Shown here in pieces: positions 12,462-57,655 of a stretch of 64,000 bases of DNA. The notes beneath the pieces were generated by a model. That model was given only the letters and a program-made list of their open reading frames with translations. It ran no database searches and was not told where the DNA came from. The stretch comes from Akkermansia sp. GTDB taxonomy: Bacteria > Verrucomicrobiota > Verrucomicrobiia > Verrucomicrobiales > Akkermansiaceae. Position 1 is the first letter of the stretch. Each line of letters opens with the position of its first letter. The translations under genes and the position numbers were made by a program. The stretch lies in contig JAZNGY010000075.1 in NCBI GenBank assembly GCA_045576695.1, positions 46,097 to 110,096 of the forward strand. Reading direction: 5' to 3'.

Positions 12462-12627
12462 AATCAAAAATTGATTTTCCCTACCATACCACAATGATTA
12501 CCCTTTGTCGAATCATCTTTTTGCTGCTGACATCAAAAATACGTTTTTTAGCTGTATGACACCATTCTTTGTCTTCCTTGCTCACTTTTTGCTTGACCTC
12601 TCCCTCGCTCTTTGTTACCATGACCTC

Positions 12628-13222: not shown

Positions 13223-14320
13223 ATGCACAACAAACTCCACATAACCCGCTACAACAAGACCCGCAACTGGGCCATCTGGGCGAATGAGGAACTGCTGGCA
13301 GTAACAGTATACAGAAAAGGCGCACAGGCCGTTCTCGACTACATTTACACATTAACCCAAAACACAATAAATACTATGTCCAAGACTAAGACAACCGCCG
13401 CCGCTACCACCGCCACCAACAACAACGCCGACTTCGACCCGACCATCATCAAGGCCGTCAACGGCGAGGGCAAGACCATCCGCATCAAGTTCGACCCGCT
13501 GGGCGTAAGCGTCTGCTACAACCTGAAGGGTAAGTGGTGCGCCCATGAAATCTACAACCAGCCGCTGCCTGAGCTGATTGCCGAGGGCGTATTCACCATC
13601 GAGGACGAGGATTCACAAAAGACCTACGCCAAGTATTTCAACGCTGGCAAGAAAGACAAGCGTTCCAAGGCCAAGCGCAGCAAGGCCAAGAAGCAGAAGA
13701 AGAACGCCGAGCCCCAGGAACAAGAACAGGAAGCCGCCATCGCAGCGATTGAGGAAGCCCCGCACATGGAAGCCGCAGAAATCAACGAAGAGATGGAAGC
13801 CGCCCTCTGGCAGGAGATTGAGGAAGCCCGCGAGGCTGAGCAGCTGGCAGAGGTAACGATGGAAGCTCAGGACGAGGAAGCCGCAGAAGCCGATGAAGAA
13901 AGCGTTGAGCCCGCAGCAGAGGAACCCGCCACTAACGAGCCTGAATCGAATGAAGCCGAATCTAACGAGCCCGTGACGGACGTGGAGCCGACCGCCGAAG
14001 CCCCGGCACAGGAATCCGCCGCTGAGGCCGCTCAGCCCGAAGAAGCCCCGAGCAAGCTCAGTACCTACAACCTGAAAAAAACTGGACAAGCCCCTATGAG
14101 TCTCACCCCCGGTAGCGATGATATCAAGCTGGAGCCCGGTGACCAGTTAATCCGAATCTACAAGCGCAGAATGATTGAAGTAGAGGTGACCGAGAATGGC
14201 TACAAATGGAACGGCGAGGTTTATCCTACCCTCACCCACATCAGCTGGAAAGCAGCCGGATACCAGATCAGCGGCAACACATTCTTCGGCCTCCCCAGCA
14301 AGCCCCGCAGTAAGGCTTAA
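13223..14320 (+). CDS. Acidic protein with C-terminal DUF2924-like domain
   Basis: C-terminus LIRIYK...VEVTENGYKWNGEVYPTLTHISWKAAGYQISGNTFFGL parallels the C-terminus of 16113-16652; long Glu/Ala-rich linker; alternative start at 13376. Confidence 0.75.
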   Translation: MHNKLHITRYNKTRNWAIWANEELLAVTVYRKGAQAVLDYIYTLTQNTINTMSKTKTTAAATTATNNNADFDPTIIKAVNGEGKTIRIKFDPLGVSVCYNLKGKWCAHEIYNQPLPELIAEGVFTIEDEDSQKTYAKYFNAGKKDKRSKAKRSKAKKQKKNAEPQEQEQEAAIAAIEEAPHMEAAEINEEMEAALWQEIEEAREAEQLAEVTMEAQDEEAAEADEESVEPAAEEPATNEPESNEAESNEPVTDVEPTAEAPAQESAAEAAQPEEAPSKLSTYNLKKTGQAPMSLTPGSDDIKLEPGDQLIRIYKRRMIEVEVTENGYKWNGEVYPTLTHISWKAAGYQISGNTFFGLPSKPRSKA

Positions 14321-14397: not shown

Positions 14398-14838
14398 CTA
14401 ATGCGTTTCAAAGAGGATGCGCTCAATCTCATCTGGCGGTAGGTTAAGCATGTTGAGCATCCCTGTAACTGTAGGCTGTGATACGCCCAGCATTTCCGCA
14501 CATTTCGAGGCTGAGCCGTATTTCCCGGTGGTCAGGTATTCCTCAAGAATGATGGCGTTGGCCATTTTGATTGCCCTGTTTGTCGGGACTCGCATTGTCT
14601 TGCGTTGGGCAATATAGTCATCCATCTTGGTGCGCAGCCGTACAATCCTAACATTCTCCTCATTGCGTTCGAAGATGATGGGGATGGAAAAATCGCAATT
14701 TGCCTGGGGAACCACCATACCCGGCGCTGATTTTGCATGAATGTTTGGTAGTTCCACCTGAACCTGCGGCTCGGGTTCCTTTCTGGTGCGCCGGAGCTTG
14801 TTCAGCGATATCGTGTCTTGTCTTGATTCTTGTTTCAT
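14398..14838 (-). CDS. HTH protein typical of DUF2924-recombinase modules
   Basis: YGSASKCAEMLGVSQPTVTGMLNMLNLPPDEIERIL HTH; directly downstream of the recombinase. Confidence 0.7.
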   Translation of the reverse strand: MKQESRQDTISLNKLRRTRKEPEPQVQVELPNIHAKSAPGMVVPQANCDFSIPIIFERNEENVRIVRLRTKMDDYIAQRKTMRVPTNRAIKMANAIILEEYLTTGKYGSASKCAEMLGVSQPTVTGMLNMLNLPPDEIERILFETH

Positions 14839-14839
14839 C

Positions 14840-16129
14840 TTATTCGAGTCCTTTCTTGAGGGTCACGTCCAACTGCTCTCCATTGTCGTTGATAACGATG
14901 CTTTCAAATGCGGCTTGGAATACTTTTTGCAATTCTCGCGGGGTAGAATCACCTAATGCCGTGTCGATGCTGTAGAGCGCGTCTGCGATTCGCCCAGCGT
15001 CTTCATCGGGCAGCTGCCGGATAAGAGCTGCCAGTACCTGGGGGCTGTCCCTGAATCGCAGGATATAGCCTTTCAACAATTCCTCAATCTGGTCTGCTCC
15101 GAAGTGAGGGGAGGCGCAGCCCTGCAAATAGTCGTGCCTGTTGGCTGCACAGGTGTAATAGCGGCGCATTACTCCACGTTTGATGGTGTATGTGCCAAGA
15201 TATAGCCTTCCGCATTTGCCGCATTTCAGAATCCCTTTGAGCGGGTAGATAACCTTGTGTTCTTTCTGATCCAGCCCGCTGCGCAGCTCTCGTGCTTCAT
15301 TATTTCTCTGGCACGTTTTTTCGTACGTCTCTTGGTCAATGATTGGCTGGTGGATGCCTTGAATGAGTCCAGAATCCGTCTTCACATAGCCAGCGTAGAC
15401 GTAGTGAGTGAGGATACGCTTAATCGTCTGGCTGTTCCAAGGTATACGCTCGCCACTATCCTTGTTCTTGCGGTACAGCCGTTTCTCTTTATTGAGTTGC
15501 CGGGCAATGACTACTGGGCCTTTGCCTCCTATATAAAGCTCGTGGATGTAGCGGACAGTAGCAGATTCCAGCCTATCGACCACGAGCTTCTTTTCATGCC
15601 ATTTGTATCCGTAGGGCGCACTACCACATACCCAACGGCCTTGTGCTTTACAGGCGTTGATTTTATCCCTGAGTCGGGAACGGATGATTGCGGCTTCGTA
15701 GTCGGCAACTACGGCCATCATGTTCATGGAAAGCTTACCCTCCGGCGTGTGCGTTTCAATGGACTGGGTGGCGCTGACAAATGCCACATTGTGGTCACTA
15801 AACTCCTTCATCAGCGTGGTGAAGTCACCTAAGTCTCGGCTCAGTCGGTCGAGCTTGTACACCACTACACAATCAATCTCGCCCGCTCTAACCTGATGTC
15901 GGAGCATGTTGAGCTGGTCGCGGTGTACGGTGGTGCCACTCACCGCCGCATCTACGAATGAAGCTACGAACACCCATCCGTCTTTTTCATGGCGGCGTAT
16001 GCAATCCATGCACATGTCGAATTGGGCATCAAGAGAGTTGTATTCTTGGTCGAGACCTTTGGCAATGGATTTGCGGGTGTAGATAGCACACCGCTTTGTT
16101 GGCATTACTGGATTACTTGTTGTCATCAT
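14840..16129 (-). CDS. Large serine recombinase (integrase candidate)
   Basis: CAIYTRKS catalytic Ser, VVVYKLDRLSR, recombinase domain, CGKCG zinc ribbon. Confidence 0.92.
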   Translation of the reverse strand: MMTTSNPVMPTKRCAIYTRKSIAKGLDQEYNSLDAQFDMCMDCIRRHEKDGWVFVASFVDAAVSGTTVHRDQLNMLRHQVRAGEIDCVVVYKLDRLSRDLGDFTTLMKEFSDHNVAFVSATQSIETHTPEGKLSMNMMAVVADYEAAIIRSRLRDKINACKAQGRWVCGSAPYGYKWHEKKLVVDRLESATVRYIHELYIGGKGPVVIARQLNKEKRLYRKNKDSGERIPWNSQTIKRILTHYVYAGYVKTDSGLIQGIHQPIIDQETYEKTCQRNNEARELRSGLDQKEHKVIYPLKGILKCGKCGRLYLGTYTIKRGVMRRYYTCAANRHDYLQGCASPHFGADQIEELLKGYILRFRDSPQVLAALIRQLPDEDAGRIADALYSIDTALGDSTPRELQKVFQAAFESIVINDNGEQLDVTLKKGLE

Positions 16130-16652
16130 TTCTGGGAGTCATGGGGAGGTTAAAGAAGTAGTTGCCGCTTTTGGCGTAGCCGCAGATTTTCCAAGCAATC
16201 GCGGTCAGGTTGTCGTACTTCACGCCATCGTATGCGAACATGTTTTTGCCGATGACTGTGACCTCGTGGTACTTGCCTTTGTACAGGCGGCGTATGATTG
16301 TGCCGACAGGTAGATTGGTTGCGGGCGTATTGGCGTGGTTATTCTCAGGATGACTGGTATCGACTATCTCCATCGGCTTTACATTGAATCGGCGAGGCTT
16401 CAGCCGGATGAGAGTCTCATCTGCAATCTCGTGGGCTCGTTTCATTGCTCGCTCGGATATCCCTCCGTTGATGAGGGTATTGATTCTCCACGTCAGCCTC
16501 TTGATGAGGAACTGGCGATTTCTGGTTGTATAGGGTTGATTCCCGAATAGGAGTACCCACTCGCGCCGGAGTTCGCGGACTTTCATATCCTGCAAAGCGG
16601 CTATGCGGGCAGCTCCTTCCTCTGGTGTCAGTTTTGTGATGGTTTGACTCAT
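16113..16652 (-). CDS. DUF2924 domain protein
   Basis: ELRREWVLLFG...; PVGTIIRRLYKGKYHEVTV...LTAIAWKICG...SGNYFFNL; overlaps recombinase start. Confidence 0.8.
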   Translation of the reverse strand: MSQTITKLTPEEGAARIAALQDMKVRELRREWVLLFGNQPYTTRNRQFLIKRLTWRINTLINGGISERAMKRAHEIADETLIRLKPRRFNVKPMEIVDTSHPENNHANTPATNLPVGTIIRRLYKGKYHEVTVIGKNMFAYDGVKYDNLTAIAWKICGYAKSGNYFFNLPMTPRNDDNK

Positions 16653-16978
16653 GCTTGTTGTTGTAAAGGCTTAATAATAAATATTTAGTGTACCCTATAC
16701 TTTAGCACAGATTGAGCTATTTGTCTATATTTTTCTTGTATTTAACTCGCTGATTTTTAATGAGGTGGGGACTTTGTGCCTATCGGTCGCACAAACACAA
16801 TATTGGGATTTTTCAGCATGCGCAGAATCAGCGGGGCAAGAGCTTTTGCCAGCTTGTCGTGAGCCTTGGTGTGACCAAGGGGCGTGATACCAATTTGCTT
16901 CATGAGTTGAGCTAAAGTAAGGGGATTGCAGGGAGCGGGCAGACACGCGCCTACCCGCCCCCAGGGTTCCTGTTTCTA

Positions 16979-17695
16979 TCAGCCGATCGTGCGGAGGTAG
17001 TTCACGAAGTCAGGCGTATTGCGTCCAACATTTCGCAGTACCGGCACAAACACGCTGTTGCGACCGAACTTCTCGCGCTTGCTCGTAAGCTCCCACTTGC
17101 CATTGAACAGGCCATCACGCAGAGCGAACTTAGCTGCGGTCAGGATGTTCTTACCAGCGCGTGTATAAGCTACGCCACGCAGCGTCCAGACGGCCAGCCC
17201 GTATGCCTCGCCGTTGTACTCAAGCGGCAGCGCATAATCGAGCCCGGAGGGTGCTTTGAACACGAGGTTCACGTGCAGCACCGGGGTGAAGCTGGGCTTC
17301 TGGTTGCCCACCCACTCAATCGTGCCGCCAGCGGCATGCACTTCCTCAAGCGTGTTGTACACCTGGGGCTTCTCGTCAGAATCGAAGTCGAGATTCTGCA
17401 CGAACTGCTTGCGGGCTGACAGGATGGTGAGTTCCAAGGGAGCGGGCAGCACCACTTCCTTATTGAGCACCAGATCGCCGCCATTGAACAACTCAGCGAG
17501 GCTGCCTACGTTCTGCACAAGATTGAGACGAGGGATGACGATATCGTCACTCTCAATCTCCCCGGCAATGGTGCCAAGGGTGGCAGACTGGGGAGCGGCA
17601 AGCTCGGTGGTGGTTGCGGTGGTGGTAGCGGAGCTGATAACCTCCGAGGACTGACCCTCAGAGCCATTGATGTCGTATGCTTTGATTTTAGCCAT
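16979..17695 (-). CDS. Putative phage single-stranded DNA-binding protein
   Basis: IVIPRLNLVQ motif and position in the replication/recombination operon. Confidence 0.5.
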   Translation of the reverse strand: MAKIKAYDINGSEGQSSEVISSATTTATTTELAAPQSATLGTIAGEIESDDIVIPRLNLVQNVGSLAELFNGGDLVLNKEVVLPAPLELTILSARKQFVQNLDFDSDEKPQVYNTLEEVHAAGGTIEWVGNQKPSFTPVLHVNLVFKAPSGLDYALPLEYNGEAYGLAVWTLRGVAYTRAGKNILTAAKFALRDGLFNGKWELTSKREKFGRNSVFVPVLRNVGRNTPDFVNYLRTIG

Positions 17696-17739
17696 AATGA
17701 TTACTTGATTTGGGTTGATTGTGTTTGATTGTCTTGGGG

Positions 17740-18795
17740 TTAAATGCGCTTGAGGTACTTGCTCGGCGCACCTGTCGTGATGATTCCGTCCTCCGTGAGC
17801 TGAGAGACGAGTTCATCCTTGCTTTTCTGCTTCTGCCCGCGAGGAGCAATAGCGGAAATCTTGTTGCCGAGGGCATCGATGCTCACGCTGCCGCAGCATT
17901 CGATAAACGTCTCGGGTGAAATCTTGTCCTTTACCGCGCCAAAGGCGGCGAGTGCATCGGAGATGGTGCGGCGACCAGCACGATTGGCGAGCTTGTAGCC
18001 GGGGATCTCAGCACCATTGAGAGCCATGTCGATGGCGTGGTAGTTGACAGAGTCAATCCATTCCTTGAGCACCTTGGCACAGTCGAGGCATTGAGCCATC
18101 ATGCGCGGGTCTGAGATGTTGGAGGGGTGAAGCTCCTCGGGGATAGCGAGCCCAGAGTAGCGGCTGGCGATGGGCAGCGCGAGGTTGCGGAGTGCCTTGC
18201 AGGTAGCTTGCTTGCGGCAGTAGCAGCATTGCTGCCCCGGTTGCTCCTCCTTGTTCTTGGCATTGGCTCTGCGGACAATGGTGTCAATGCGGAGTCTCAT
18301 GCGCTCGGTGTCCTCGCGGGTGTAGGTGTGAGTGCTGATGTACTGGCGGCGGGGCTGAACGAAGTGAACGCTAAGCTCCTGCAGCTCCGGGAACTTCTCG
18401 AACACGCCGAGCGCATAGGCACAGCCCTGTGCATTCGATTCTGCAGGTTCGATGGCACCATAGCCGAACTTCCAGTCCATCAACACGCCCACCTTTTCGG
18501 CCACCGCAACAAAGTCGGCTGTACCGTAGGTGAGGCCGTCAGCGATGGTAAGGCGAAGTTCGCGATACTGGGCAGCGTCAGGCAGCTTAGCCAGCTCGCC
18601 ATCGCGGTAGTCTCGGCAGAGCCCGCAGAGGAACGCTTGCTCCTCATTGAGCTTCGAGTAGTCATCTGTCTCCAGAGCCTCGTGCATGAGCGTACCCTCT
18701 TCGGCGGCGGCGTTGGTGCCGCTCTTGCCGTAAAAGGCCGGGCATATTTCCTTGTAGCCGAGTGAGGACGGAGAGTGTCTTGCGTGCTTAGCCAT
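17740..18795 (-). CDS. PD-(D/E)XK (Cas4-like/DUF2800-like) exonuclease
   Basis: HSPSS, GTLMH, YGTADF, MDWKFG and CCYC...C Fe-S-type cysteines; start taken at MAKHARHS. Confidence 0.8.
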   Translation of the reverse strand: MAKHARHSPSSLGYKEICPAFYGKSGTNAAAEEGTLMHEALETDDYSKLNEEQAFLCGLCRDYRDGELAKLPDAAQYRELRLTIADGLTYGTADFVAVAEKVGVLMDWKFGYGAIEPAESNAQGCAYALGVFEKFPELQELSVHFVQPRRQYISTHTYTREDTERMRLRIDTIVRRANAKNKEEQPGQQCCYCRKQATCKALRNLALPIASRYSGLAIPEELHPSNISDPRMMAQCLDCAKVLKEWIDSVNYHAIDMALNGAEIPGYKLANRAGRRTISDALAAFGAVKDKISPETFIECCGSVSIDALGNKISAIAPRGQKQKSKDELVSQLTEDGIITTGAPSKYLKRI

Positions 18796-19018
18796 TGGGG
18801 AACAGCTCCTCTCTATCAGGCTCGTTACCGATGCTTTCGATGCGTGACTGCAAGCGCAGCACCACATCCTCGCACATGTCTTTCAGTTCGGAGTAAAAGC
18901 TACGCATCTCGTAGTTGCGTGCGTTGTTGCTCTTGGTCTCCATCACTCCCTCCATGTAGGCCAAGTGGCGTATCACATGGCCGAGGGCTTTCATCTTCTC
19001 AATGTCGGTTGTATCCAT
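18788..19018 (-). CDS. Hypothetical phage protein
   Basis: Coupled between helicase and nuclease; start taken at MDTTDIEK. Confidence 0.55.
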   Translation of the reverse strand: MDTTDIEKMKALGHVIRHLAYMEGVMETKSNNARNYEMRSFYSELKDMCEDVVLRLQSRIESIGNEPDREELFPNG

Positions 19019-19053
19019 ATTGATTGATTCTTGGGTTAAGGGGAAAATCGTTA

Positions 19054-20373
19054 TCATTGAATGGGAAAGGGTTGCATATCGCCATCGTTAAGCAGGTCAA
19101 TGTGGGCGAGCTTGGAAGCGCAGACCTGAGCCGTGTGTTCCTCACAGGTTCCGGCGGCGAAGCAAATCTTCTGGATGCTGGCAGCACCACCGGCACGATG
19201 CACTCGGCCAAGTGCCTGGCGCAGATCAGCAGCGGAGAATGTGGGCGATATGATGCTCAGGCGGGGACGCTGGCCGCTCGGGTCGTGCAGACTCACGCCC
19301 ACGCCGCCAGCCTGAATGTTGGCAATGACGACCGGAATCTCGTTGCGCTGGAAGCGGTCGATAACGGACTGGCGTTCTTCCGCAGACTGGCCACCACAGA
19401 TGATGTCGGAGCAGTTGAGCTTCGCCGCCAGAGCGCATATGGTTTCGGTGAAGTTCACCAACAGGACCACGCTCTGCCCCTCTTCGATAGCGGTCTTGGT
19501 CATTTCCACCATAGCCGGTACTTTGTGCAGCTCGATGGCTTGGCGGGCGCGGAGGACAAGTGTCAGGTGGCTGGCTTTCTTCGAGCCCAGGGCTTCGGCG
19601 ATCTCATCGAGCTTGTTGCCATCAGCTTCACGTTCTGCCTTGCGCAGCTCGTACTTCAGGTTGTCGTACTCGTCCTGAATCGCCTTGGCCTTACCTGTCT
19701 CAACGATAGCGGGCTCGATGATGGTTTCCGGGAAGTCCGGGATATCGGCGATACGGAGGCGGCTACCACGCAGCGGGAAGATAGCGTTGTGCAGTTGGCG
19801 CAAGCACTCTTCATCGCCGCTGAACTCCATGCCGAAGAAGCCCTCACGCACGCCATTCCGCTTAGCCCAGTACCAGTAGTTGTACAGGTTGTGGAGGCCA
19901 AGAGCGAAGCCGAGGGCTCGCATTTCAAGCGGGTTGCTGGCGGCGGTGGCTGAGCACAGGAGGATGCGGCAATGACGAGCGCGGGCTCCGATGAGTAAGC
20001 GAGCGTTGAGGGAGTCACGACCCTTACACTTCTGGCACTCGTCAAAGATGATAAGTGTCTCGTGCGGGACGTGCCACTCATAGCCGGTATCGGTCTTACG
20101 GCAGATATCCAGCTTGCCCCTGCGGATGTTCTCGTAGTTGGTGACAAGGAGCGGCTTGATTTCGGCAAGCTTGCATACCTTTTCCCAGCTCGGCACAGTT
20201 GCCTTGGGCGTGAGGATGATGGTGGGGATACCGAGGCGGGCAGCTACTTCGCAGCCGATATAGGTCTTGCCTGTGCCGGGGTCGCTGGCATCGAGTGCCA
20301 CTCGGTTCGGGCTGAGGAGAGCGCGTTCGATGCTCTCGGCGTGGTCTTTCTGATAGTCTAGGAGTGTTAGCAT
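19054..20373 (-). CDS. SF2 (SNF2-like) helicase
   Basis: DPGTGKT Walker A, IFDECQ, SAT, QAGGVGVSL, QALGRVHR. Confidence 0.9.
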   Translation of the reverse strand: MLTLLDYQKDHAESIERALLSPNRVALDASDPGTGKTYIGCEVAARLGIPTIILTPKATVPSWEKVCKLAEIKPLLVTNYENIRRGKLDICRKTDTGYEWHVPHETLIIFDECQKCKGRDSLNARLLIGARARHCRILLCSATAASNPLEMRALGFALGLHNLYNYWYWAKRNGVREGFFGMEFSGDEECLRQLHNAIFPLRGSRLRIADIPDFPETIIEPAIVETGKAKAIQDEYDNLKYELRKAEREADGNKLDEIAEALGSKKASHLTLVLRARQAIELHKVPAMVEMTKTAIEEGQSVVLLVNFTETICALAAKLNCSDIICGGQSAEERQSVIDRFQRNEIPVVIANIQAGGVGVSLHDPSGQRPRLSIISPTFSAADLRQALGRVHRAGGAASIQKICFAAGTCEEHTAQVCASKLAHIDLLNDGDMQPFPIQ

Positions 20374-20387
20374 GATTTTTGGCTTTC

Positions 20388-20437
20388 ACTCCTTTCAGCA
20401 GGTCGACTTCAAAAAATCGGACTACTTTTTGCAAAAA
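20388..20437 (-). repeat. 50-bp inverted repeat, left copy
   Basis: Reverse complement matches 23798-23848 at about 44 of 50 positions. Confidence 0.9.
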
Positions 20438-20545
20438 AAAATTATTGGCAGTGGAAAATGCTCTATTTTTGCAACAAAAACCACAATATGTAGTACAAAA
20501 GCAGAAAATCCTGTGCCATAATTGCGTATGCACCCTGTGCGCACC

Positions 20546-20574
20546 TTGACATCACCCTTGGTAAGGCATAAAAT
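20546..20574 (+). promoter_or_regulatory. Canonical sigma70 promoter TTGACA-17-TAAAAT
   Basis: Upstream of GTG 20597, which has an AAGGAG RBS. Confidence 0.7.
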
Positions 20575-20596
20575 ATGGCAAAGGAGTAAACACTAA

Positions 20597-22975
20597 GTGA
20601 GTAAGGAAAGTATTATAAATCATTTTTCAGACGTCGGACTCGTATACCGACTCGACAAGGCCTGTAAGGTCTTGTTCACCCCATACACAGCCCTTTTCAA
20701 GGAAAGAGGATTGGAGTTCAATTTTGAACTTGAGGGCGCAGAAAAGACGGCCCATCTTGACCGCATTCGCGACATTCTGCTCAGCTTGAGTACAGACACG
20801 GAAGCCGGGCGTAGGCTTGCAAACGTGCTTGATGAAATTGTGCTGGTAGATAAGAACTACAGCAAGGTGAGCACATACATAGAAGACATCACTCAGAAAT
20901 GGGGCGATGGCCTACGCGCATCGGGGTACAACATTGGCGAACAGCTGGAGCTTGTCGCAGCATTGTGTACAGATGAGCGCAAGGAAGTGAGCGATGCTAT
21001 GGCAATCATAGTGTCGCGCATACACTCCTTGGATTCTGCCACCAATCGTGACTACCATTGGTTTGGTGACTTTGCGGAAGAGAAAGAGGACGGCTCTGTT
21101 AAGCTGCCTGTTTTCAAAGTGCCTGATGATAAGGATTTGGCTGCTAAAAAAGAAGACCTTGAGGCACAACTTAACGCAGGATTCGAAAAGAATCACTACA
21201 CTACCGATTGCCATGTTGTGCTTCAGCCGAAATCCGCTGATGGCGAAATCTGGGCTCTGGTTGAACACAGCGGCCGCATTGTGGTTAGGGAGAAAATGGA
21301 AGATGGTAAGGCCAGTACCATCAAATATCCACCATTGACGCGAAGCATCGTTGTCTTAGATACTGAGCGCAGAATGCTACGTATCAAGTCTGGTGCTGAA
21401 TGGATGTATAATCTACTGTCCAAGAAATTCTCAAATTTCTTCTGCGGCCATGAGGAGCTATTCCAACAAGGCCAGATGTATTGGTTTGACCCTATCAGCC
21501 GACATGGCTTGGCAAAGGCTTTCAGTATTGCCGATTATAGCACCATTATCAACAAAGCGTATATCGTCTCCATTAAGTGCGATGTCATGGATGGCGCGGA
21601 GGGTGACCAGCTCACCTTAAACAATACGAAAGACAGGGATATCTGTGCCACTTGGGAGAAGTTTAGCAAAGACCATATTCTTTGGATCAGGTCTATTACC
21701 CTGCGCCTGAGAATAAAGGGGTGCAAGAACAGGGTAACTGTAAAGATTGACAAAGAGAAAGGCCTGTTTGTAAGCATGCTTAGTAAGATGGGGCTGGTAA
21801 GAAGCTGGCTGCGCAGACGTGGCTTTGAGAAGCATTACCCCATCAAGGAGTATTGCAGCAAGGAGAGTAAGGCTGCAATACCTGCTGCGTTCTGGCCCAT
21901 TGTAAGGACTCTGCTTGAAACAGGAGAAGTCAGCAAAGCGAACCTGTATAACGTGTTTGACTCGCTTGCCCCAGGTGTCGGCGACTTCGTGAATCCTCGC
22001 ATACTGAAAGAAGTTGCTTCTCCTAAATATGAGAAGAAGTGGACGGATGCGTATGGCCGCGAGTGGGACGTGAAGTATAATGAGGCTACAGACAGCTACT
22101 ATGGCAGCAACATCAATGTTGAACTCGGCATAGAAGCTGGGCCTGACATCGACCCGTCAGAAGTCGAGATTCAGCCCATTAACAAAGATGCCTTGCTGAA
22201 AGACATTCAGACCGCACTCATGAAAAACTCCAGACTCAATATGGATGACATGGGTGACGGCGTCCATCGTCTGGGGCAGCTGAATGCCCTCGGTGTCACA
22301 GCATTCTTGGCAACTGGTACGAACTGGCACCCCGCATTTAAGGGCAACAATGTGACCAACTCTTCGATTGCCGTGGTGACGTTTACCGAATCCCCTCCCG
22401 ATTTGTACAAAGAACAAATTGAGGAGTCCTATATTCAGCACGCATGGCTCGGTAAATTACTGCGCTGGGATATTGCGGAAAAGCGTCTTGTTGAGATCGC
22501 GCCGGTAGAAAGTGAAATCAATGAGAACAATACGCTCATGTTCCAGTCTAACGATACACCGCCTTGGCACAGGTGGCCGCTCGGGTTACCTGAAGAGAGA
22601 TATCGCCATTTATCGCAGGTGGAGTTTATCTTGGGTTGTGATTACGCAACCATTCGCTACGCTGGCGTTGAGAAGCGCTTCACACTTGACGAGCTTGTGA
22701 TGCTTCAGCCAAAACGGCCAAAGCGAAATCCCAATAAGGTGAAAGACCACCCCAATTTCGCCACGCTATTACGATTTATCTGGGCGAATGAGCGTAGCGG
22801 GGATATGGGCTTCGAGTTGAAAGAAACGGGGTCCTCTGGCTCTCGTAAAAATCTGAATGATGATATCGGATTGTTCTTCGGCACAAATGATTGTGTCTGG
22901 GAAGAGATACCAGAGAACCCCGGCAGGTACAGATTAGCGTTTGCTAGTTGTACCACTACTGTGGATGACGATTAA
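20597..22975 (+). CDS. Large hypothetical protein (792 aa)
   Basis: Long ORF with own promoter and RBS; no motif recognised. Confidence 0.8.
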   Translation: MSKESIINHFSDVGLVYRLDKACKVLFTPYTALFKERGLEFNFELEGAEKTAHLDRIRDILLSLSTDTEAGRRLANVLDEIVLVDKNYSKVSTYIEDITQKWGDGLRASGYNIGEQLELVAALCTDERKEVSDAMAIIVSRIHSLDSATNRDYHWFGDFAEEKEDGSVKLPVFKVPDDKDLAAKKEDLEAQLNAGFEKNHYTTDCHVVLQPKSADGEIWALVEHSGRIVVREKMEDGKASTIKYPPLTRSIVVLDTERRMLRIKSGAEWMYNLLSKKFSNFFCGHEELFQQGQMYWFDPISRHGLAKAFSIADYSTIINKAYIVSIKCDVMDGAEGDQLTLNNTKDRDICATWEKFSKDHILWIRSITLRLRIKGCKNRVTVKIDKEKGLFVSMLSKMGLVRSWLRRRGFEKHYPIKEYCSKESKAAIPAAFWPIVRTLLETGEVSKANLYNVFDSLAPGVGDFVNPRILKEVASPKYEKKWTDAYGREWDVKYNEATDSYYGSNINVELGIEAGPDIDPSEVEIQPINKDALLKDIQTALMKNSRLNMDDMGDGVHRLGQLNALGVTAFLATGTNWHPAFKGNNVTNSSIAVVTFTESPPDLYKEQIEESYIQHAWLGKLLRWDIAEKRLVEIAPVESEINENNTLMFQSNDTPPWHRWPLGLPEERYRHLSQVEFILGCDYATIRYAGVEKRFTLDELVMLQPKRPKRNPNKVKDHPNFATLLRFIWANERSGDMGFELKETGSSGSRKNLNDDIGLFFGTNDCVWEEIPENPGRYRLAFASCTTTVDDD

Positions 22976-23640
22976 GCCTTAGCCAATTCAGCTTTCAATA
23001 GCGCAGCAGTAGACTTGTTTAACTTACGGACATAGGATTCATCTACGCCAAGTAGTTGAGCTATGTCCGTATTTTTCATGCCCTCTGCGTGCCAGATAAA
23101 GCACATCTGGGTTCTTTCATCGAGTTTACTCAGATACTGCATCGCTATGGCTGCATCGTTTTTGATGCTAACTGCATTATCGGGGGCGTGTACGCTTTCA
23201 TCGTATAGCACATCACCCCATCTTGTAAACTCAGCGCCGGGCTTATCCCAAGCATCATCGGTAAAGTCATCGAACTGGCAGAAGTTCTCGCTGCCCGATG
23301 CCATTGCCGATGACTTTTTCCCTGTCCCCCGGCGGGATGCCTCACCGTAGTCACCAAGGCGTTTCATGATGAGGCCTTGCATGACAGGTTCAAAGACATC
23401 CATCTCGCAACGGAAACAAGCCAAGCTGCACAAGCTCATCCAAAGTTCTATGCCAAAATCATAGGCCGTTTGGTTGTTCATGAGCCACTTGTCCGTTCCG
23501 TGCCTACGACTGTTGATAGTCTTGGCAAGCATCTGCAAAAGAAGATACTGCCTGTACTCAAGGTCGTAGTTCTTGCTGTTTGTGTCTAATTTGGCGAGGA
23601 TTCTTTCGCCACCCAATGTTATATCGAATGTAAATACCAT
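22972..23640 (-). CDS. Sigma70 region-4-like HTH regulator
   Basis: C-terminal LSKLDERTQMCFIWHAEGMKNTDIAQLLGVDESYVRK. Confidence 0.7.
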   Translation of the reverse strand: MVFTFDITLGGERILAKLDTNSKNYDLEYRQYLLLQMLAKTINSRRHGTDKWLMNNQTAYDFGIELWMSLCSLACFRCEMDVFEPVMQGLIMKRLGDYGEASRRGTGKKSSAMASGSENFCQFDDFTDDAWDKPGAEFTRWGDVLYDESVHAPDNAVSIKNDAAIAMQYLSKLDERTQMCFIWHAEGMKNTDIAQLLGVDESYVRKLNKSTAALLKAELAKA

Positions 23641-23797
23641 AGAATCCTCGGTATACAGGATTCCAAAGTATTGTGATAAAATCCGAGGTTGAGCAGCGCC
23701 ACTTGTCCTTGAGTATCAATAATCAAAAAGTTCGCCATCCCATTTACGACCTCCATTTCCTGAACAAGCAAATCGCCAAATAGCAGTCGCAAAACAC

Positions 23798-23848
23798 TTT
23801 TTTGCAGAAAGTAGTCCGATTTTTTCATTTGCACCTGCTGAAAGGAGT
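23798..23848 (+). repeat. 50-bp inverted repeat, right copy
   Basis: ttttttgcagaaagtagtccgattttttcatttgcacctgctgaaaggagt; partner at 20388-20437. Confidence 0.9.
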
Positions 23849-23876
23849 AGCCCAAGGAACAAAGGGCTACTCAACA

Positions 23877-24242
23877 ATGGATATTAAGAACCTTACTAAA
23901 ATAGCTGAGGAAGTAGGTGCTGAGGCCGTAGCCAAGGCAAATCGTGTAAAAGGCTGGAATCTTATCTGCTGCCTGTACTCTGAACCTCGTACTGCCGAGG
24001 ATGACCTCGCCCATGCCTACGCTACCGAAGCTCGCTCGTTAAGTCTCCTGAGCCTGCGCTTAACCTGCGCCAAAGCCGAAGCCGGGCTGCGTGGTAACAC
24101 GAAGAAGTATGAACGTCTGACCAAGGCCATCGAGGAAGTTACCAAGCGCGAGATGCGCCTGTCTGCCCTCTGCCACGAAGCCATCAAGGCTGCACGTGAA
24201 GCCGATGAAAAGGCAAAGATTGATAGAAAGGAGAACGCCTGA
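23877..24242 (+). CDS. Hypothetical phage protein
   Basis: First gene of the rightward replication operon. Confidence 0.65.
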   Translation: MDIKNLTKIAEEVGAEAVAKANRVKGWNLICCLYSEPRTAEDDLAHAYATEARSLSLLSLRLTCAKAEAGLRGNTKKYERLTKAIEEVTKREMRLSALCHEAIKAAREADEKAKIDRKENA

Positions 24243-24243
24243 G

Positions 24244-24456
24244 ATGAGCTACTACCCGAAGCACCAGCTTTCTATCGCTGGCAATCGGGACGAGTTCAGC
24301 ATCCCCCATTCTGATTTGGGGGATGCCATTTGCTCGTTCCATCTTGTCTGGGGCAAAGTGAATGGCCAGATTCAGCCCTGTATCCTGCATCCGGGCGTCT
24401 ACTACCCTGGCTTTCAACCTGTAACAGCAAAGGAGGTGTACGAATATGAAGCCTGA
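24244..24456 (+). CDS. Hypothetical phage protein
   Basis: MSYYPKH...; overlaps polymerase start. Confidence 0.55.
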   Translation: MSYYPKHQLSIAGNRDEFSIPHSDLGDAICSFHLVWGKVNGQIQPCILHPGVYYPGFQPVTAKEVYEYEA

Positions 24457-26233
24457 ACCTGAAGCGAAGAAAGGCAAGGTCTTTGCGATAGACTTCGAGA
24501 CTTACTACGGCAAGGAGCTGAGCATCGACACCCACGGCCTGTACCACTACCTGCGCGATCCTGCGGCTTCTATCTACCTCGTCTCTATCTATTCTCCTGA
24601 ATCAGATGGTGAGTTTGCGTATGTAGGTAAGCCGGAAGATTTCGACTGGCAGATGCTTGATGGCAGCACGCTCTGCGCCCACAACGCCCGCTTTGACCGC
24701 GCATGCTTCGAGAGGCTGCGCGAGCTCGGTATCGTCCCGGCAGAGCTGCAGGTGGACTGGGTATGCACCGCCGATATGGCAAGTGCGCTCAGCTACGGCC
24801 GCTCTCTGAAGGCATCTGTGGAGGGAGCCTTTGGCATCAGCATCAGCAAGGAAACCCGCACCGACATGAAAGACAAGACGTGGGCAGACGCTGTGCGCTT
24901 GGGCATGGCCAAGGAACTTGGCGAGTATTGCCTGAAAGACTCTTGGTACTGCTACCACCTGTACTCCAAGCTCGGCTCACTTTGGAGCGACAAGGAACGC
25001 AGGCTGTCAGCCTTAACCCGCGACATGTGCGACTACGGCGTGTACGTGGATCAGAAGCTACTGGCCGAGGGTAAGCAGAAGCTCCTGCGCGTGATGGATG
25101 AAGCTGTCAGCAAGATTCCGTGGGCTGATGGCAGCAAGCCTATCCTGTCGCTGAAGAATCTGAAATTGGAATGCGCCAAAGCCGGCATATCAGCACCTGA
25201 TTCACTCGCTCAGGACTCTGACAGCTGTACTGCCTGGGAGGAGAAATACGGCGAGCAGTTTCCTTGGGTGGGGGCAATGCGAGACTATCGCAAGGCCAAC
25301 ACGCTGTACAAGAAATTGGAAACGCTTGAGAGCCGCATTCGCCCGGACGGCACATTCTCCTACGGGCTCAAATACTTCGGCGCTCACACAGGCCGCTGGA
25401 GCGGCGATGGCGGCTTCAACATCCAGAACTTGCCGCGCGTAGCTCAATTCGGCGTAGATCTGCGCAAGATGATTGTACCACGCCCCGGCCATACGTTCAT
25501 CATTAGCGACCTTGGCCAGATTGAGCAACGGGTCTTGTCTTGGCTGGCGGGTGACAACGCCATGATGGAGGAGCTGGAGAAAGGCATCTCGGTTTATGAA
25601 GCCCACGCCCGCGCCACTATGGGATATACAGGCAGCGAGCCCTTGAAGCACGCTAACCCTGACCTGTACCGACTGGCTAAGGCTCGTGTGCTGGGGCTGG
25701 GCTATGGCGCCGGTGCTAAGGTGTTCGTCAGGATTGCCAAGACGATGGCGGGGCTGGATATCTCGGAGCGCGAAGCTGAGCGCATCGTGAGAGACTTCCG
25801 TAACAGCAACCGCCTTATCACTAAGCTCTGGGCTAAGCTGGACCATGCCTTTAATGTGAACAAGGGCAAGGCTTGCTTCGCTCTGCCGCTGCCCTCTGGC
25901 CGCTCTCTTTACTACCGCAATCTTGCCATGACCCCCAAAGGCATAAGCGCAGAAGTACAAGGCAAGCGCTGCGCCTTTTTTGATGGCAAGCTGGCAGAGA
26001 ACCTGACATCGGCCACCGCTCGCGATGTACTGGGCGAGATCCTGCTGAATCTGGATGCCGCCGGGTATCGAGTTGTGATGCACATCCATGACGAGGTGGT
26101 AGTGGAAGTGCCGACCGAAAAAGTTGACACCGCGCTAAAGGATGTGCAGCGCATCATGACCACTGCACCAGAGTGGCTGGAGGGGCTACCCCTCGCAGCT
26201 GAAACCACCTCATCAACCTTTTACACCAAATGA
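24446..26233 (+). CDS. Phage family A DNA polymerase with 3'-5' exonuclease
   Basis: IDFET exo I, HTGRWSG, DLGQIEQRV motif A, KARVLGLGYG motif B, IHDEVV motif C. Confidence 0.95.
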   Translation: MKPEPEAKKGKVFAIDFETYYGKELSIDTHGLYHYLRDPAASIYLVSIYSPESDGEFAYVGKPEDFDWQMLDGSTLCAHNARFDRACFERLRELGIVPAELQVDWVCTADMASALSYGRSLKASVEGAFGISISKETRTDMKDKTWADAVRLGMAKELGEYCLKDSWYCYHLYSKLGSLWSDKERRLSALTRDMCDYGVYVDQKLLAEGKQKLLRVMDEAVSKIPWADGSKPILSLKNLKLECAKAGISAPDSLAQDSDSCTAWEEKYGEQFPWVGAMRDYRKANTLYKKLETLESRIRPDGTFSYGLKYFGAHTGRWSGDGGFNIQNLPRVAQFGVDLRKMIVPRPGHTFIISDLGQIEQRVLSWLAGDNAMMEELEKGISVYEAHARATMGYTGSEPLKHANPDLYRLAKARVLGLGYGAGAKVFVRIAKTMAGLDISEREAERIVRDFRNSNRLITKLWAKLDHAFNVNKGKACFALPLPSGRSLYYRNLAMTPKGISAEVQGKRCAFFDGKLAENLTSATARDVLGEILLNLDAAGYRVVMHIHDEVVVEVPTEKVDTALKDVQRIMTTAPEWLEGLPLAAETTSSTFYTK

Positions 26234-28710
26234 CCACAATGGACTCAAATCCTTCCAACAGCAACAACGCCCAGGCTCAGTCTACGGACTGGGCTTTGGT
26301 GCGTGAATTCTACCTCACTTGCCGCAGCTACAAGCAGACTGCCGAGCATTTTGGGCTCAACCCCGACACGATAAAGACACGCTGCCGCCGCGAGGACTGG
26401 AAAAACATGAACCATGAACCCTCACAGGAGGTTCAAATGGGCAATTCTGAACCCTCAGTTGAACCTTTTGGCGTGAACCCTGAACCCTCTGCTGATGCCT
26501 TTGCCGGCTTCCCGGCCTTGCCTATGCGCCCGAACCTGATGGCCGCTGCGATTTCCTTCGGCCAGCCTTGGCAGCAGCGCGTGATCGCCCACGACAAGCT
26601 CCGTGATAAAGCCGCCTACCGCTCCTACATCTGCAACCCGGCTACGAAAGATTGCCTGTTCAGCGGCATCCGCGGCATGAACAAGCATGAGATGGTGAGC
26701 CGCGAGAATCCGGCCGTCAGCATGATAGCCGTGGTAGCGGATTATGATATGGTGATGAGTGATGAGGAAAGAAAGAAAAAGACCGCAAAACTCACCATCA
26801 AGCCCAACTTCATCAGCTCCTCCTACTCCGGCGGCACACATGCGGTCTGGTTCTTGCAAGCCCCGCTGCCGCTGATGCCTAACGCCGAAATGGTACAGGC
26901 TTTGCTTGAGACGATTGTACGTAAACTCAAGCTCAAGAACGCCTACGGCCAGCTAGACGGCAAGGCTTTCTACAACACTTCGCAATACTACCACGCTGGC
27001 TGGAACTGGCAGCAGATCAGCACGGAGCCCATCGCAGAGTCCATGTCCTTACTCTGGCTGGACGAGGCTCTGAAGAAAAGCAAATTCACGACCACTGGCA
27101 CCCAGATTCCTCTCGCGCGTATATGGGAGGAAATGCAAAAGCGCGGCTGGGACAAGAAGTGGGGCGGCGATAAAGCATTTGAGCTGGGTGCGCGAGGTGT
27201 GCGCTTTTGGGATCCGCTGGCTGATTGCCCCACCGCCGCGATAGTGAAAGAAAATGGCATGATTTGCTTCACAGGCCCATTCCCGTTCCAATCGTGGGCA
27301 GACATCTTCGGCTCTGACTTCATTGACGCTTTCCGCGCCGACACGTTCGGTAAGGCCTTGAGCGAGTGCTATATGGTCAATAACACCTTCTACGTCTGCA
27401 ACGAGCTGAGAAGCGAAAATGGCAGCTACAAGCCTTGCCTACTCACCTATAACCGCCAGAACTTCGAATCCCTAGCTACAGAGAAGTACGGCCTTAACAG
27501 CAAGCCTGAACAGGAGGGTGAGGACAGCCCGGTGAAGCAGTTGGTAGCGAAAATCGCCACCTACAACACGCTTCCGGCAGCCTGTCCATTCATTTACCGC
27601 AAGGAGCGCATCATTCATATTCAGGGTGAAGCACGACTCAATACCAGCTTCCTGCGCGTACATGAGCCTGATTTGAGCAAGGGTCAGGAGTGGGGCGATG
27701 GCTTCCCTTGGATTGCTTCATTCATGGAACGCCTGTTCCCTGATATCATCCAGCGCGACCGATTTATGGCCGCTTGGGCATACGCCTACCGAAACGCTTA
27801 CAAGGGCGAGCCGAAGAACGGCCACACTATTTTCATTGCTGGATCTGTGGGCAGCGGTAAAAACTTCCTAAGTGAATGCCTGTATGGTGCAAGTATGGGT
27901 GGAGCGGTTGATGCCAGCGAGTACGTCCTCGGGCAGACTCGTTTCAATGACCACCTCATGGGCAGCGGCGTGTGGACGCTAAACGATACTGTGTCCAAGG
28001 GCGACTACCGCGAGCGTGCCATTTTCGCCAAGAGCTTAAAGAAGATGGCCGCAAACCACTTTCATTCCTGCGAAGGCAAATACAAGAGCGCCACCGGGAT
28101 TTATTGGAGTGGCCGCATCATTGTCACGCTCAACACCGACCCTGATTCCCTCCAGCTTCTTCCGGACATCGAACTATCCAACCGCGATAAGCTCAGCCTG
28201 TTCAAGACTACTGACGAGCCGATGAATGATGCCGATGGCGCTGCTAAAGCTAAAGCGGAGATGGGGGCGCTTTGCTCATTCCTGCTCAACTGGGAGATAC
28301 CTGAACATTGCGTAGGCGATGCAAGATGGGGAGTGCGCAATTATTTGCACCCTGAGCTGCTTGCAGAGGCTTCAGATTCCAGCCCTACAGCCTCGTTCCG
28401 CGAGATATTGACGCTGTTTGTAAAGGACTGCTTTGATGCGGATAAGAGCTTGCAAGAGCTGAAAGGCTCGTCTACGTGGTTCATGCAACAAATGCTGCTG
28501 CAGGACGGATTGAAAGACATGATACGAGGGGCTGTAACGCCCACGAGCATCGGCAGGCGTATCAGCAAGCTCGCCAGCGCCGGGGACTTCCCCTTGGTCT
28601 ATGATCGCCAGTCTAAAGCACGTGAGTGGGCTATCGACCGCAATGCTTTCATGGAATACCTTAACAGCCCTAATCAGGAAGGAGAACTCGATGAGCTTTG
28701 CCCATTCTAA
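26230..28710 (+). CDS. Primase-helicase (SF3/D5-like C-terminus) with N-terminal HTH
   Basis: GSVGSGKN Walker A, WTLND Walker B region; overlaps polymerase stop. Confidence 0.75.
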   Translation: MTTMDSNPSNSNNAQAQSTDWALVREFYLTCRSYKQTAEHFGLNPDTIKTRCRREDWKNMNHEPSQEVQMGNSEPSVEPFGVNPEPSADAFAGFPALPMRPNLMAAAISFGQPWQQRVIAHDKLRDKAAYRSYICNPATKDCLFSGIRGMNKHEMVSRENPAVSMIAVVADYDMVMSDEERKKKTAKLTIKPNFISSSYSGGTHAVWFLQAPLPLMPNAEMVQALLETIVRKLKLKNAYGQLDGKAFYNTSQYYHAGWNWQQISTEPIAESMSLLWLDEALKKSKFTTTGTQIPLARIWEEMQKRGWDKKWGGDKAFELGARGVRFWDPLADCPTAAIVKENGMICFTGPFPFQSWADIFGSDFIDAFRADTFGKALSECYMVNNTFYVCNELRSENGSYKPCLLTYNRQNFESLATEKYGLNSKPEQEGEDSPVKQLVAKIATYNTLPAACPFIYRKERIIHIQGEARLNTSFLRVHEPDLSKGQEWGDGFPWIASFMERLFPDIIQRDRFMAAWAYAYRNAYKGEPKNGHTIFIAGSVGSGKNFLSECLYGASMGGAVDASEYVLGQTRFNDHLMGSGVWTLNDTVSKGDYRERAIFAKSLKKMAANHFHSCEGKYKSATGIYWSGRIIVTLNTDPDSLQLLPDIELSNRDKLSLFKTTDEPMNDADGAAKAKAEMGALCSFLLNWEIPEHCVGDARWGVRNYLHPELLAEASDSSPTASFREILTLFVKDCFDADKSLQELKGSSTWFMQQMLLQDGLKDMIRGAVTPTSIGRRISKLASAGDFPLVYDRQSKAREWAIDRNAFMEYLNSPNQEGELDELCPF

Positions 28711-28723
28711 GGCTCTTTGGCTC

Positions 28724-28955
28724 GTGACACTTAACGAAGCTGTGACACTGGAGAAATCTAGTGTCACAGCAAAGTGTCATTCTGCTAAGCTGTTGCCTAT
28801 TAAGCTGTTTCTCTCCTTAATGACACTTGTGACACTTTATTGTACAGATAAAGTATATAGGGGAGAAAAGAATAATGAGAAGTGTATACGTGTGAAATTT
28901 ATATATACGTGTATAGGACTCGTTAAAAACGAAAGTGTCATCTGTCATGTGTCAC
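28724..28955. repeat. Eight RTGACAC repeats in both orientations (candidate origin)
   Basis: Forward at 28724, 28742, 28820, 28829; reverse at 28761, 28774, 28935, 28949; AT-rich core between. Confidence 0.7.
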
Positions 28956-28998
28956 AACTCGCCGCCGCACCCTACAACCTTTGACACCATACCCCCTT

Positions 28999-29562
28999 AT
29001 GTCTAAGAACGATTTATACGCCATCAAGGAAGCCTATCGGCGAAAGCTGTACGAAGAAGCCTACGAGAGTGCCGAGGCAAAAGCTTGGCGCGAGTCTCTC
29101 TCCCCGGCTGAACGCGAACGCGCCGAAGCCCTAGGACTTCTACAGGCCTTGCCTGATACGGACGTTAGCAGCCGAAGCCTTGACACCATCCCCCTCAAGA
29201 TGCAGCCCCAGGAAATCATGGAAATAGAAAGCGAAGAACAGTCGGTAGCAGCACCGCTCCGCAACAAGCTCAGTAAGAATCGCGCCGAGATTCTTACCAC
29301 GCTTGGTATGCAGGATGTACAGGAGCTGCAAGCCTTTCTGACTCAGGGCGGCAACCCGAAGCTTCGCGCCGCCTGTCTCAACTACCTACTCGACCAAGGA
29401 AGCACCACCATCGAGGAATGTGCGAAGAAGATGGGGATGAGCAAGCAAGCTTTACACTACCACGTCCGGCAGATTGAGAAGCAGCTGGGCTTGCCACCTA
29501 TGGGCAACCAGCGCAAGCAATCCTCTCGTGAATCCTATCGTCTCAGCAATCGCCGCCGCTAA
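28999..29562 (+). CDS. HTH DNA-binding protein
   Basis: TIEECAKKMGMSKQALHYHVRQIEKQLG; ATG follows the TTTGACA motif. Confidence 0.75.
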   Translation: MSKNDLYAIKEAYRRKLYEEAYESAEAKAWRESLSPAERERAEALGLLQALPDTDVSSRSLDTIPLKMQPQEIMEIESEEQSVAAPLRNKLSKNRAEILTTLGMQDVQELQAFLTQGGNPKLRAACLNYLLDQGSTTIEECAKKMGMSKQALHYHVRQIEKQLGLPPMGNQRKQSSRESYRLSNRRR

Positions 29563-38495: not shown

Positions 38496-38798
38496 TTACT
38501 TGGAAAGCTTGGCCACAGCGTCCTTCAGGTTCTTACCGACCTTGAACTTCACAACTGTGCGGGCGGGGATAGCCACGTCCTTGCCGGGGTCCTTGGGGTT
38601 GCGACCGACCTTAGCTTTCACCTCCTTGGGGCAGAACGTACCGAAGTTGCGGAACACCACAGTATCGCCGTTGCTGACAGCTTCCGTGATGGAATCCACC
38701 ATCTTCTGCACAACCTCCAGTACATCTGCCTGAGTGCAGCCGTTGTCCAGCTGAGCGCAGACCATATTCACGAGTTCTCTCTTGGTGATAGTAGCCAT
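38496..38798 (-). CDS. HU/IHF-family DNA-binding protein
   Basis: TKRELV...VVFRNFGTF...KVGRNPK...IPARTVVKFKVGKNLK. Confidence 0.93.
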   Translation of the reverse strand: MATITKRELVNMVCAQLDNGCTQADVLEVVQKMVDSITEAVSNGDTVVFRNFGTFCPKEVKAKVGRNPKDPGKDVAIPARTVVKFKVGKNLKDAVAKLSK

Positions 38799-38897
38799 AA
38801 GTGTAAAAGTTTGTGACGGTTATTATAGTTCGCTCTGCCGTCTCGGTCAAGCTCTTTCGGCTTAGATTGTGTCTGTTTTTGACACGCCCGCAAGGGT

Positions 38898-57598: not shown

Positions 57599-57655
57599 AG
57601 GCCCAGCCGCCCACAAGGCGGCTTTTTCTTTGCCTTTTGACAAGTGTCCTCAAGT

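Follow-up and report, generated by a model that had tools for sequence, protein, structure and literature searches.

Inverted twin motifs around a sigma-like gene in an Akkermansia prophage: candidate promoters of an exchangeable specificity module

The window analyzed here, a 64,000-nucleotide (nt) stretch of Akkermansia sp. DNA, carries an integrated prophage in which two inverted arms of 51 nt each bracket a cassette of two convergent genes. One gene encodes a 792-amino-acid (aa) protein and the other a 222-aa sigma-factor-like protein, and each arm heads an operon with replication genes that is directed away from the cassette (coordinates in Table 1). The reading best supported by the sequence, with a probability of about 0.6, is that the arms are cognate outward promoters of the cassette-encoded sigma-like protein and form an exchangeable specificity module with it. 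RNA polymerase carrying the sigma-like protein, as an extracytoplasmic function (ECF)-like factor, would read both promoters; the left one would start the helicase-nuclease-integrase operon and the right one the 121aa-PolA-primase operon, and one phage factor would switch on both replication arms together. The cassette, made up of the two genes, the two intergenic regions and the pair of candidate promoters, is swapped between related phages as one module. A first-pass annotation, made before any database search, had offered twin promoters for the enclosed sigma-like protein as one of two explanations, and it is this one that is favored by the geometry of the arms, their mismatch to the sigma-70 consensus, the presence of two copies and co-variation over 11 lineages.

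The arms were recovered by a repeat search as 88% complementary and 3359 nt apart, and base-by-base comparison found 45 of the 51 positions identical. Five of the six mismatches fall within a 7-bp core, which reads CATTTGC in the right copy and GAAGTCG in the left. An opposed repeat of about 50 bp with its differences centred on a 7-bp core had already been described by the first-pass annotation, and the description holds: when the 5.3-kb region was shuffled 40 times, inverted 51-nt windows matched at 27-33 positions at best, against the 45 observed. The 16-mers AGTAGTCCGATTTTTT and ACCTGCTGAAAGGAGT, taken from the motif halves, each occur exactly twice in the 64 kb, and in a two-block scan of the same sequence both copies scored 28/28 and everything else scored 18 or less, which is the noise level of shuffled sequence. 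Each arm faces outward, its last base lying 14 nt (left) or 28 nt (right) ahead of the start codon of the outward gene. The arms sit in two divergent intergenic regions, between the helicase (-) and 792-aa (+) genes on the left and between the sigma-like (-) and 121-aa (+) genes on the right. Comparison of positions 19000-25000 with 50,697 phage records by blastn gave no match, an exact 16-mer search of IMG/VR returned one true relative and ten chance matches, and a motif pattern scan of metagenome contigs returned three true and seven chance matches.

The anatomy of the motif was examined in an alignment of 18 copies from nine cassette types, anchored on the GTCC-like block. A single scheme is common to all 18 copies: a T-run/GCA/A-run, a -35-like hexamer, a 17-nt spacer, a -10-like hexamer and 6 further nt, the spacer being 17 nt long in eight of the nine tabulated types and 18 nt in that of locus L042. 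Twin motifs of the same two-block kind are also present in loci L055 and L056. The -35-like hexamers across types are GTCCGA, GTCAAG, (T/G)TCCAC, GTCCAC, TTCCAA and GTCGGA, and the -10-like hexamers are GCTGAA, GCTGAT, GCTGTA, TGCTGG, ATGTTT and ATGGTT. The two copies of any one phage diverge exactly after the 6 nt behind the -10-like hexamer, and in the nine types the conserved blocks terminate 14-29 nt ahead of the start codons. Beyond the motif, left copies run into a short leader with a Shine-Dalgarno (SD)-like GAAAGG and right copies into a stem-loop.

If this layout is that of a promoter, transcription is predicted to start at about 23845-23849 from the right copy and at about 20387-20391 from the left copy, 14-18 nt upstream of the helicase ATG (20373). 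The variable 'central core' of the first-pass annotation then lies in the unconstrained promoter spacer, in which sigma-70-family promoters accept any sequence. The upstream T-run/GCA/A-run is common to most types; it resembles an UP element, which would fit reading by the host alpha subunit rather than by the variable factor.

Several other assignments for the motif were considered and set aside. The SD-like AAAGGAG within it was rejected as a ribosome-binding site, lying 14 and 29 nt from the start codons; in other types it is replaced by GGAATAAAT or ATGGTTGC. Readings as a sigma-54 promoter, a Bacteroidetes-type promoter (TTTG/TAnnTTTG) or a sigma-70 promoter (with TTGCA as -35) were examined by eye and dropped, as the second element is not conserved among copies or types. 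Contig ends from RNA runs, one beginning at 23835 and one of the L027 type stopping 37 nt before the helicase ATG, were not accepted as transcription starts because coverage looks flat or like that of DNA, and because the points of divergence between cassette types are where contigs break.

The twin motif does not fit the host sigma-70 consensus, unlike the neighboring promoter of the 792-aa gene. That promoter is the only strong sigma-70-type site within 20200-24100, and just three sites in the 64 kb reach 11/12 against the consensus; a promoter scan found no such site upstream of either outward operon. Promoters of the same kind were recognized by eye before the 792-aa homologue in seven relatives (L027, L031, L039, L013, L041, L042 and L055). 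A conserved stretch, TGTGCCATAATTG, lies at 20512-20524, immediately upstream of the -35 of the 792-aa gene, with similar stretches in L031 and L027, and could serve that promoter as an operator. For the sigma-like gene no sigma-70-type promoter could be recognized. Its upstream region (23641-23797, - strand) contains boxes conserved among relatives, with TTCTTCAG present twice in most, and a -10-like TTGATAAT that has no -35 partner. A stem (GGAATCCT/AGGATTCT, 23640-23665) pairs the SD region of the sigma-like gene.

Relatives were gathered by searches with the sigma-like and 792-aa proteins and form a small family, in whose longer loci the order helicase(-), ~800-aa protein(+), sigma-like protein(-), 111-155-aa protein(+), PolA and primase recurs. 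In L039, L027, L034 and L031 the flanking arms are 92-97% identical to the window at the DNA level, while the large protein of the cassette is 24-45% and the sigma-like protein 19-42% identical. The points at which similarity to the window ends coincide with the motif or fall inside it (window positions 20365/23876 in L039, 20402/23832 in L027 and 20438/23799 in L034). Each of 11 cassette lineages has a twin motif of its own, present in both outward regions, and every relative locus has exactly two copies, always outward-facing. As the motif tracks the cassette while the flanking arms stay near-identical, its reader is encoded in the cassette and not in the conserved arms.

The motif blocks also co-vary with the putative DNA-recognition helix of the sigma-like protein. 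The sigma4 helix ESYVRK(L/M)NK(S/A)TA, present in the window and in L021 (82% identical), L041 (60%) and L013 (59%), goes with AG(T/C)AGTCCGA..CCTGCTGA; for L041 the match of helix to block was predicted before the sequence was retrieved, and it held. Other sigma4 helices are paired with other blocks: CTGGTCAAG in L027, TCCAC in L034, TGTCCAC in L037, GTTTCCAAG in L042, TGGTCGG..ATGG in L039 and L055, CCGGAAAC in L056 and TTTTGCG..GATGTAG in L053. Spacer cores are conserved between orthologous copies (GAAGTCG in the left copies of the window, L011 and L021), and paralogous cores within one phage differ. The blocks shared by the two copies are therefore maintained by selection on each copy and not by gene conversion.

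Two loci place the motif before an unrelated gene. In L044 (190-1245, - strand) a third copy of the window-type motif heads a gene at the prophage end, beyond the integrase; judged by eye, the gene reads like a GT11-type fucosyltransferase. In L013 (8698-9760, + strand) the same GT11-type-like gene is split into four open reading frames (ORFs), abuts the cassette and lies next to a host PGI gene, and by its sequence L013 looks like a prophage remnant left by deletion between two directly oriented motif copies. The motif thus follows the cassette and not the replication genes. Cassette borders are also conspicuous in sequence collections. Public assemblies break there (loose ends at window positions 20373, 20397, 20346 and 23930), single samples (X4 and X27) contain several cassette types on the same arms, a loose end at 20397 in X4 leads into a further motif type outside the collected set, and many Logan contigs of 3.4-3.9 kb consist of the cassette alone.

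The sigma-like assignment of the 222-aa protein was assessed by sequence and by structure prediction. The protein begins with a beta-hairpin, which is followed by a helical, putatively sigma2-like domain, a disordered linker (residues 105-155) and a sigma4 helix-turn-helix (HTH). It matches Pfam Sigma70_r4_2 (PF08281) with 27.3 bits (cut-off 25.7), and profile matches in the PDB are to the sigma4 regions of FliA, SigF, WhiG and ECF sigmas. The AlphaFold model has a pLDDT of 70, and in a Foldseek search with it all 50 best listed matches were sigma factors or sigma-containing complexes, aligned over approximately 200-250 columns; the scores were marginal, with probabilities of 0.63-0.99 (0.99 for the best two), a best E-value of 3e-3 and TM-scores of about 0.3.

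The 792-aa protein is the partner of the sigma-like gene in every relative found. It and its ~390-aa relatives have no match in Pfam, PHROGs or PADLOC, and the same three resources recognized no anti-sigma domain in it. In the structural model (pLDDT 72) its central part is weakly similar to RdgC, YejK and phage 'recombination-associated' proteins, and both of its halves are related to the ~390-aa family. Two members of that family are encoded in the remote locus L054 (1-4290), where the gene order is a LexA-like protein (LexA_DNA_bind and Peptidase_S24), the 389-aa member, the 390-aa member, a 215-aa sigma factor with a Pfam Sigma70_r2 match (1.4e-6) and a 105-aa protein; two copies of the 19-bp palindrome TTCAGCGAAATTCGCTGAA precede the sigma gene of this locus. 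With ~390-aa homologues beside a Sigma70_r2 protein, the pairing with a sigma factor is evidently old and conserved.

The 792-aa and sigma-like genes overlap at their 3' ends by 4 nt in the window (22972-22975), and an overlap of 20-26 nt is found at the same place in seven relative types (L027, where it spans 10474-10496, L031, L032/L037, L034, L042 and L056). This convergent overlap leaves no room for a terminator between the two genes, and transcripts started at the strong sigma-70 promoter upstream of the 792-aa gene should extend, in antisense, across the sigma-like gene.

The stem-loop with which the rightward leader begins, noticed in the first-pass annotation as a 9-bp hairpin (gagtagccc/gggctactc), is borne out as a stable structure (dG -16.8 kcal/mol, z = -5.8). 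It follows the right copy only, and 4 nt separate its end from the ATG of the 121-aa gene; across lineages the distance from hairpin end to start codon is 3-9 nt. Among nine right-hand leaders from nine lineages, compensatory changes are found in seven of ten stem pairs, and 87% of hairpin cells are paired, compared with 26-49% when the partners are slid; none of 500 shuffles reached the observed values. A scan of hairpin and leaders against Rfam returned no family. By its co-variation the hairpin is real and conserved as an RNA structure and lies at, or close to, the predicted 5' end of the rightward transcript, and it could plausibly act as a stabilizing 5' stem-loop or bring the upstream purine-rich stretch near the AUG.

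Several observations weigh against promoters read by the sigma-like protein. Alignment of the 222-aa protein with RpoE by hhalign covers sigma4 only, the Pfam scan gave no match to Sigma70_r2, and support for its probable sigma2 domain comes only from the marginal fold match of a predicted model. The co-variation is confounded, as the sigma-like and 792-aa proteins always travel together and either could be the reader. The blocks are unlike the usual ECF consensus (AAC/CGT), with the exception of the -35 of L056. In a window-wide two-block scan the sigma-like gene itself was not preceded by a motif copy, and the autoregulation usual for ECF sigmas is thus absent. Finally, the outer pairs of the hairpin co-vary, and for them to form, transcription would have to begin no later than 23845, a few nt ahead of the +1 that the textbook spacing predicts; the -10 register chosen here is therefore provisional.

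A possible though clearly less probable explanation is that the arms are twin operators, at which a cassette-encoded regulator represses or activates promoters of the host polymerase, in the manner of CI at OL and OR. Candidates for such a regulator are the sigma4-HTH protein, in the role of an ordinary transcription factor, and the 792-aa protein, in view of its RdgC/YejK-like fold. Any reader encoded in the cassette would account for the co-variation equally well, only the sigma4 part of the 222-aa protein is secure at the sequence level, and the 792-aa protein combines a weak DNA-binding-type fold with a strong host-type promoter, as would be expected of a maintenance gene. The layout, too, is that of the lambdoid immunity region, in which OL/PL and OR/PR flank cI-rex and which is known from imm434 and imm21 heteroimmune exchanges: in both cases inverted, related cis elements flank regulatory genes, each element heads an outward early operon, and the regulator and both sites are swapped as a unit between otherwise near-identical phages. 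However, no sigma-70-like -35/-10 pair is present in or near the motif for a host polymerase to use, and the sites lack the dyad or tandem-repeat symmetry used by dimeric regulators. The rigid two-block geometry, with its 17-nt spacing and its end exactly where the copies diverge, is promoter-like. The prophage sites differ in these same respects, no sigma-70 promoter and no dyad operators, from those of the lambdoid region, and no repressor of the CI/Cro, HTH_3 or S24 type was found among the ORFs scanned. As the proposed reader is a sigma-type activator, control would be positive, unlike that by the lambdoid repressor.

It is improbable that the repeat has no regulatory role and serves instead as a module-boundary linker for homologous recombination, as terminal inverted repeats that bound a mobile cassette, or as sites for the initiator at a replication origin. 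Mosaic breakpoints between phages do cluster at or inside the motif, L013 resembles the product of a deletion between two directly oriented copies, and the repeats adjoin replication genes. A universal linker, however, would not change in sequence with the cassette, as the motif does. Mobility is contradicted by the flanks, which show no target-site duplication (tggctttc versus agcccaag), by the lack of a transposase in the cassette and by the relatives, all of which carry a cassette and none of which was found to have an empty site. The replication proteins of the arms are approximately 95% identical between phages with wholly different motifs and are therefore not the motif readers, and the motif is also found before the glycosyltransferase-like gene.

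A programmed invertible segment, flipped at the arms by the phage serine recombinase, as in the second explanation of the first-pass annotation, or by another invertase, is very improbable. A 51-bp inverted repeat does bracket a 3.4-kb segment with a serine recombinase encoded 4.2 kb away, and inverted repeats around a regulatory segment of a few kb are a feature of Hin/hix, Gin/gix, fimS and the invertible promoters of Bacteroides. The recombinase, however, has the architecture of a large serine integrase, and its gene is distal in the leftward operon of what is an integrated prophage. The cassette specifies only the 792-aa and sigma-like proteins, and no gene within it or beside it codes for an invertase. 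Unlike the sites of those switches, the arms lack dyad symmetry within themselves, and with five of seven central positions different they offer no common crossover core. The populations, too, show one orientation: the cassette is oriented alike in nine of the ten lineages with readable flanks, and all close relatives are collinear. In assembled DNA contigs only the orientation of the window was present (long contigs of X2 and X3 span the cassette, and pieces from X1 and X4 agree), with the caveat that contigs drop rare variants; strand-switch joints were not seen in DNA contigs.

The only flipped cassette is that of the distant lineage L053, in which the sigma side of the cassette is flanked by a helicase orthologue of 64% aa identity. 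The large protein of L053 is only 22% identical to the 792-aa protein of the window, and a flip between lineages this distant looks like a rare evolutionary rearrangement and not a switch. It plausibly reflects one ancient event of homologous recombination between the twin promoters, after which both arms would keep a promoter. In L053 (174-4792, GCA_964370425.1) the locus's own twin motif, AAATTTTGCGnTTTAT..GATGTAG, is kept on both sides of the cassette.

The proposal of cognate promoters read by the sigma-like protein can also be set against known sigma systems. It shares with ECF (group 4) and sigma-28-like (group 3) systems a small two-domain protein with a sigma4 HTH and a bipartite promoter whose blocks vary with the sigma around a fixed 17-nt spacer, and differs from them in the missing Sigma70_r2 sequence match, the lack of an autoregulated copy, the lack of a recognizable anti-sigma and the convergent 792-aa partner. 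The -10-like GCTGA(A/T)A(G/A) is similar to the sigma-28 -10 element GCCGATAA, and the -35 of L056 (GGAAAC) to the ECF GGAAC; both resemblances are leads only. Phage specificity factors with co-evolving promoters are known from the RNA polymerases of T7, T3 and SP6, gp28 of SPO1 and gp36 of phiEco32, all from lytic phages with many promoter copies. The proposed factor would likewise redirect transcription to phage-specific promoters. It differs in belonging to a temperate prophage, in having two promoter copies (three in L044) that bracket its own gene and in the horizontal exchange of the pair as a cassette. A literature search found no description of such a cassette module.

If the sigma-like protein does read the arms, a family of gut prophages would control both replication arms through a private, jointly swapped sigma/promoter pair, and the logic of lambdoid immunity would have been built on promoter specificity instead of a repressor. 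The dozen natural cassettes would be a ready set of sigma/promoter pairs, possibly mutually orthogonal, and the system could be a model for the start of replication in temperate phages of uncultured Verrucomicrobia-like hosts. A working role would also be assigned to two unannotated protein families, the 792-aa family with its ~390-aa relatives and the sigma-like partner. A more speculative extension, which is doubtful at present, is that the cassette is the immunity determinant of a switch that operates without a CI-type repressor. The RdgC-like 792-aa protein, made from its strong host-type promoter, would hold the orthogonal sigma in check, either directly or by convergent transcription across the overlapping sigma-like gene, and once released the sigma would fire both arms through the twin promoters; cassettes would be mutually 'heteroimmune' by promoter specificity, and L054 would link the switch to the SOS response.

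Table 1. Coordinates of the twin motif, the cassette, the outward operons and other genes in the 64-kb window.
Feature	Position	Strand	Remarks
Left copy of twin motif	20388..20438	-	
Left copy, -10-like block	20394-20403		
Left copy, variable core	20404-20410		GAAGTCG
Left copy, -35-like block	20417-20426		
Right copy of twin motif	23798..23848	+	
Right copy, UP-like T-run/GCA/A-run	23798-23809		
Right copy, -35-like block	23810-23819		AGTAGTCCGA; hexamer GTCCGA at 23814-23819
Right copy, 17-nt spacer	23820-23836		holds T6 tract and variable core CATTTGC
Right copy, -10-like block	23833-23842		ACCTGCTGAA; hexamer GCTGAA at 23837-23842
Right copy, terminal 6 nt	23843-23848		AGGAGT
Stem-loop at 5' end of rightward leader	23845..23872	+	9 bp, 10-nt loop AAGGAACAAA
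Sigma-70-type promoter of 792-aa gene	20546..20574	+	TTGACA-17-TAAAAT, 11/12
792-aa protein of no recognized family	20597..22975	+	converges on sigma-like gene
Sigma-factor-like protein, 222 aa	22972..23640	-	proposed reader of twin motif
Leftward operon headed by left copy	14398..20373	-	helicase, 89-aa ORF, DUF2800 nuclease, 238-aa ORF, DUF2924, large serine recombinase, 146-aa ORF
Helicase	19054-20373	-	first gene of leftward operon
Large serine recombinase (Resolvase, Recombinase, Zn ribbon) adjoining DUF2924	14840-16652 (pair); 14840-16129 (recombinase)	-	
Rightward operon headed by right copy	23877..29562	+	121-aa ORF, small ORF, PolA, DUF5906 primase-like, 127-aa ORF, 193-aa HTH protein
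PolA	24446-26233	+	
DUF5906 primase-like protein	26230-28710	+	
Terminase	33211		phage gene
M15 peptidase	39076		phage gene
Portal	39923		phage gene
P22-like coat protein	42568		phage gene
M16 peptidase	8097-12494		probable host flank
DinB-like gene	62375		probable host flank

The setting of the cassette is that of a prophage, with phage genes between probable host genes on both flanks. The outward helicase-nuclease and PolA-primase operons of the first-pass annotation are present as described; its 'SSB' label was not upheld, the gene in question being a 238-aa ORF without a family match. A near-identical copy of the prophage lies on a contig of a metagenome-assembled genome labelled uncultured Verrucomicrobiales (ruminant gut), and the prophage sequence is frequent in ruminant and other gut metagenomes.

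Other cargo was noted outside the cassette and its operons. A second DUF2924 protein is encoded at 13223-14320 (+), beside the integrase end. At 36457-37962, 57644-58858 and 59617-60366 lie genes for a ParB-N/methyltransferase fusion, for S-adenosylmethionine synthetase and for an N6/N4 DNA methylase near the right end of the prophage. A gene for an HU-family DNA-binding protein (38499-38850, - strand) lies within the structural or late region and is preceded by TTGACC-17-TATAAT at 38850, one of the only three 11/12 sigma-70-type sites in the window; it may be expressed in the lysogen.

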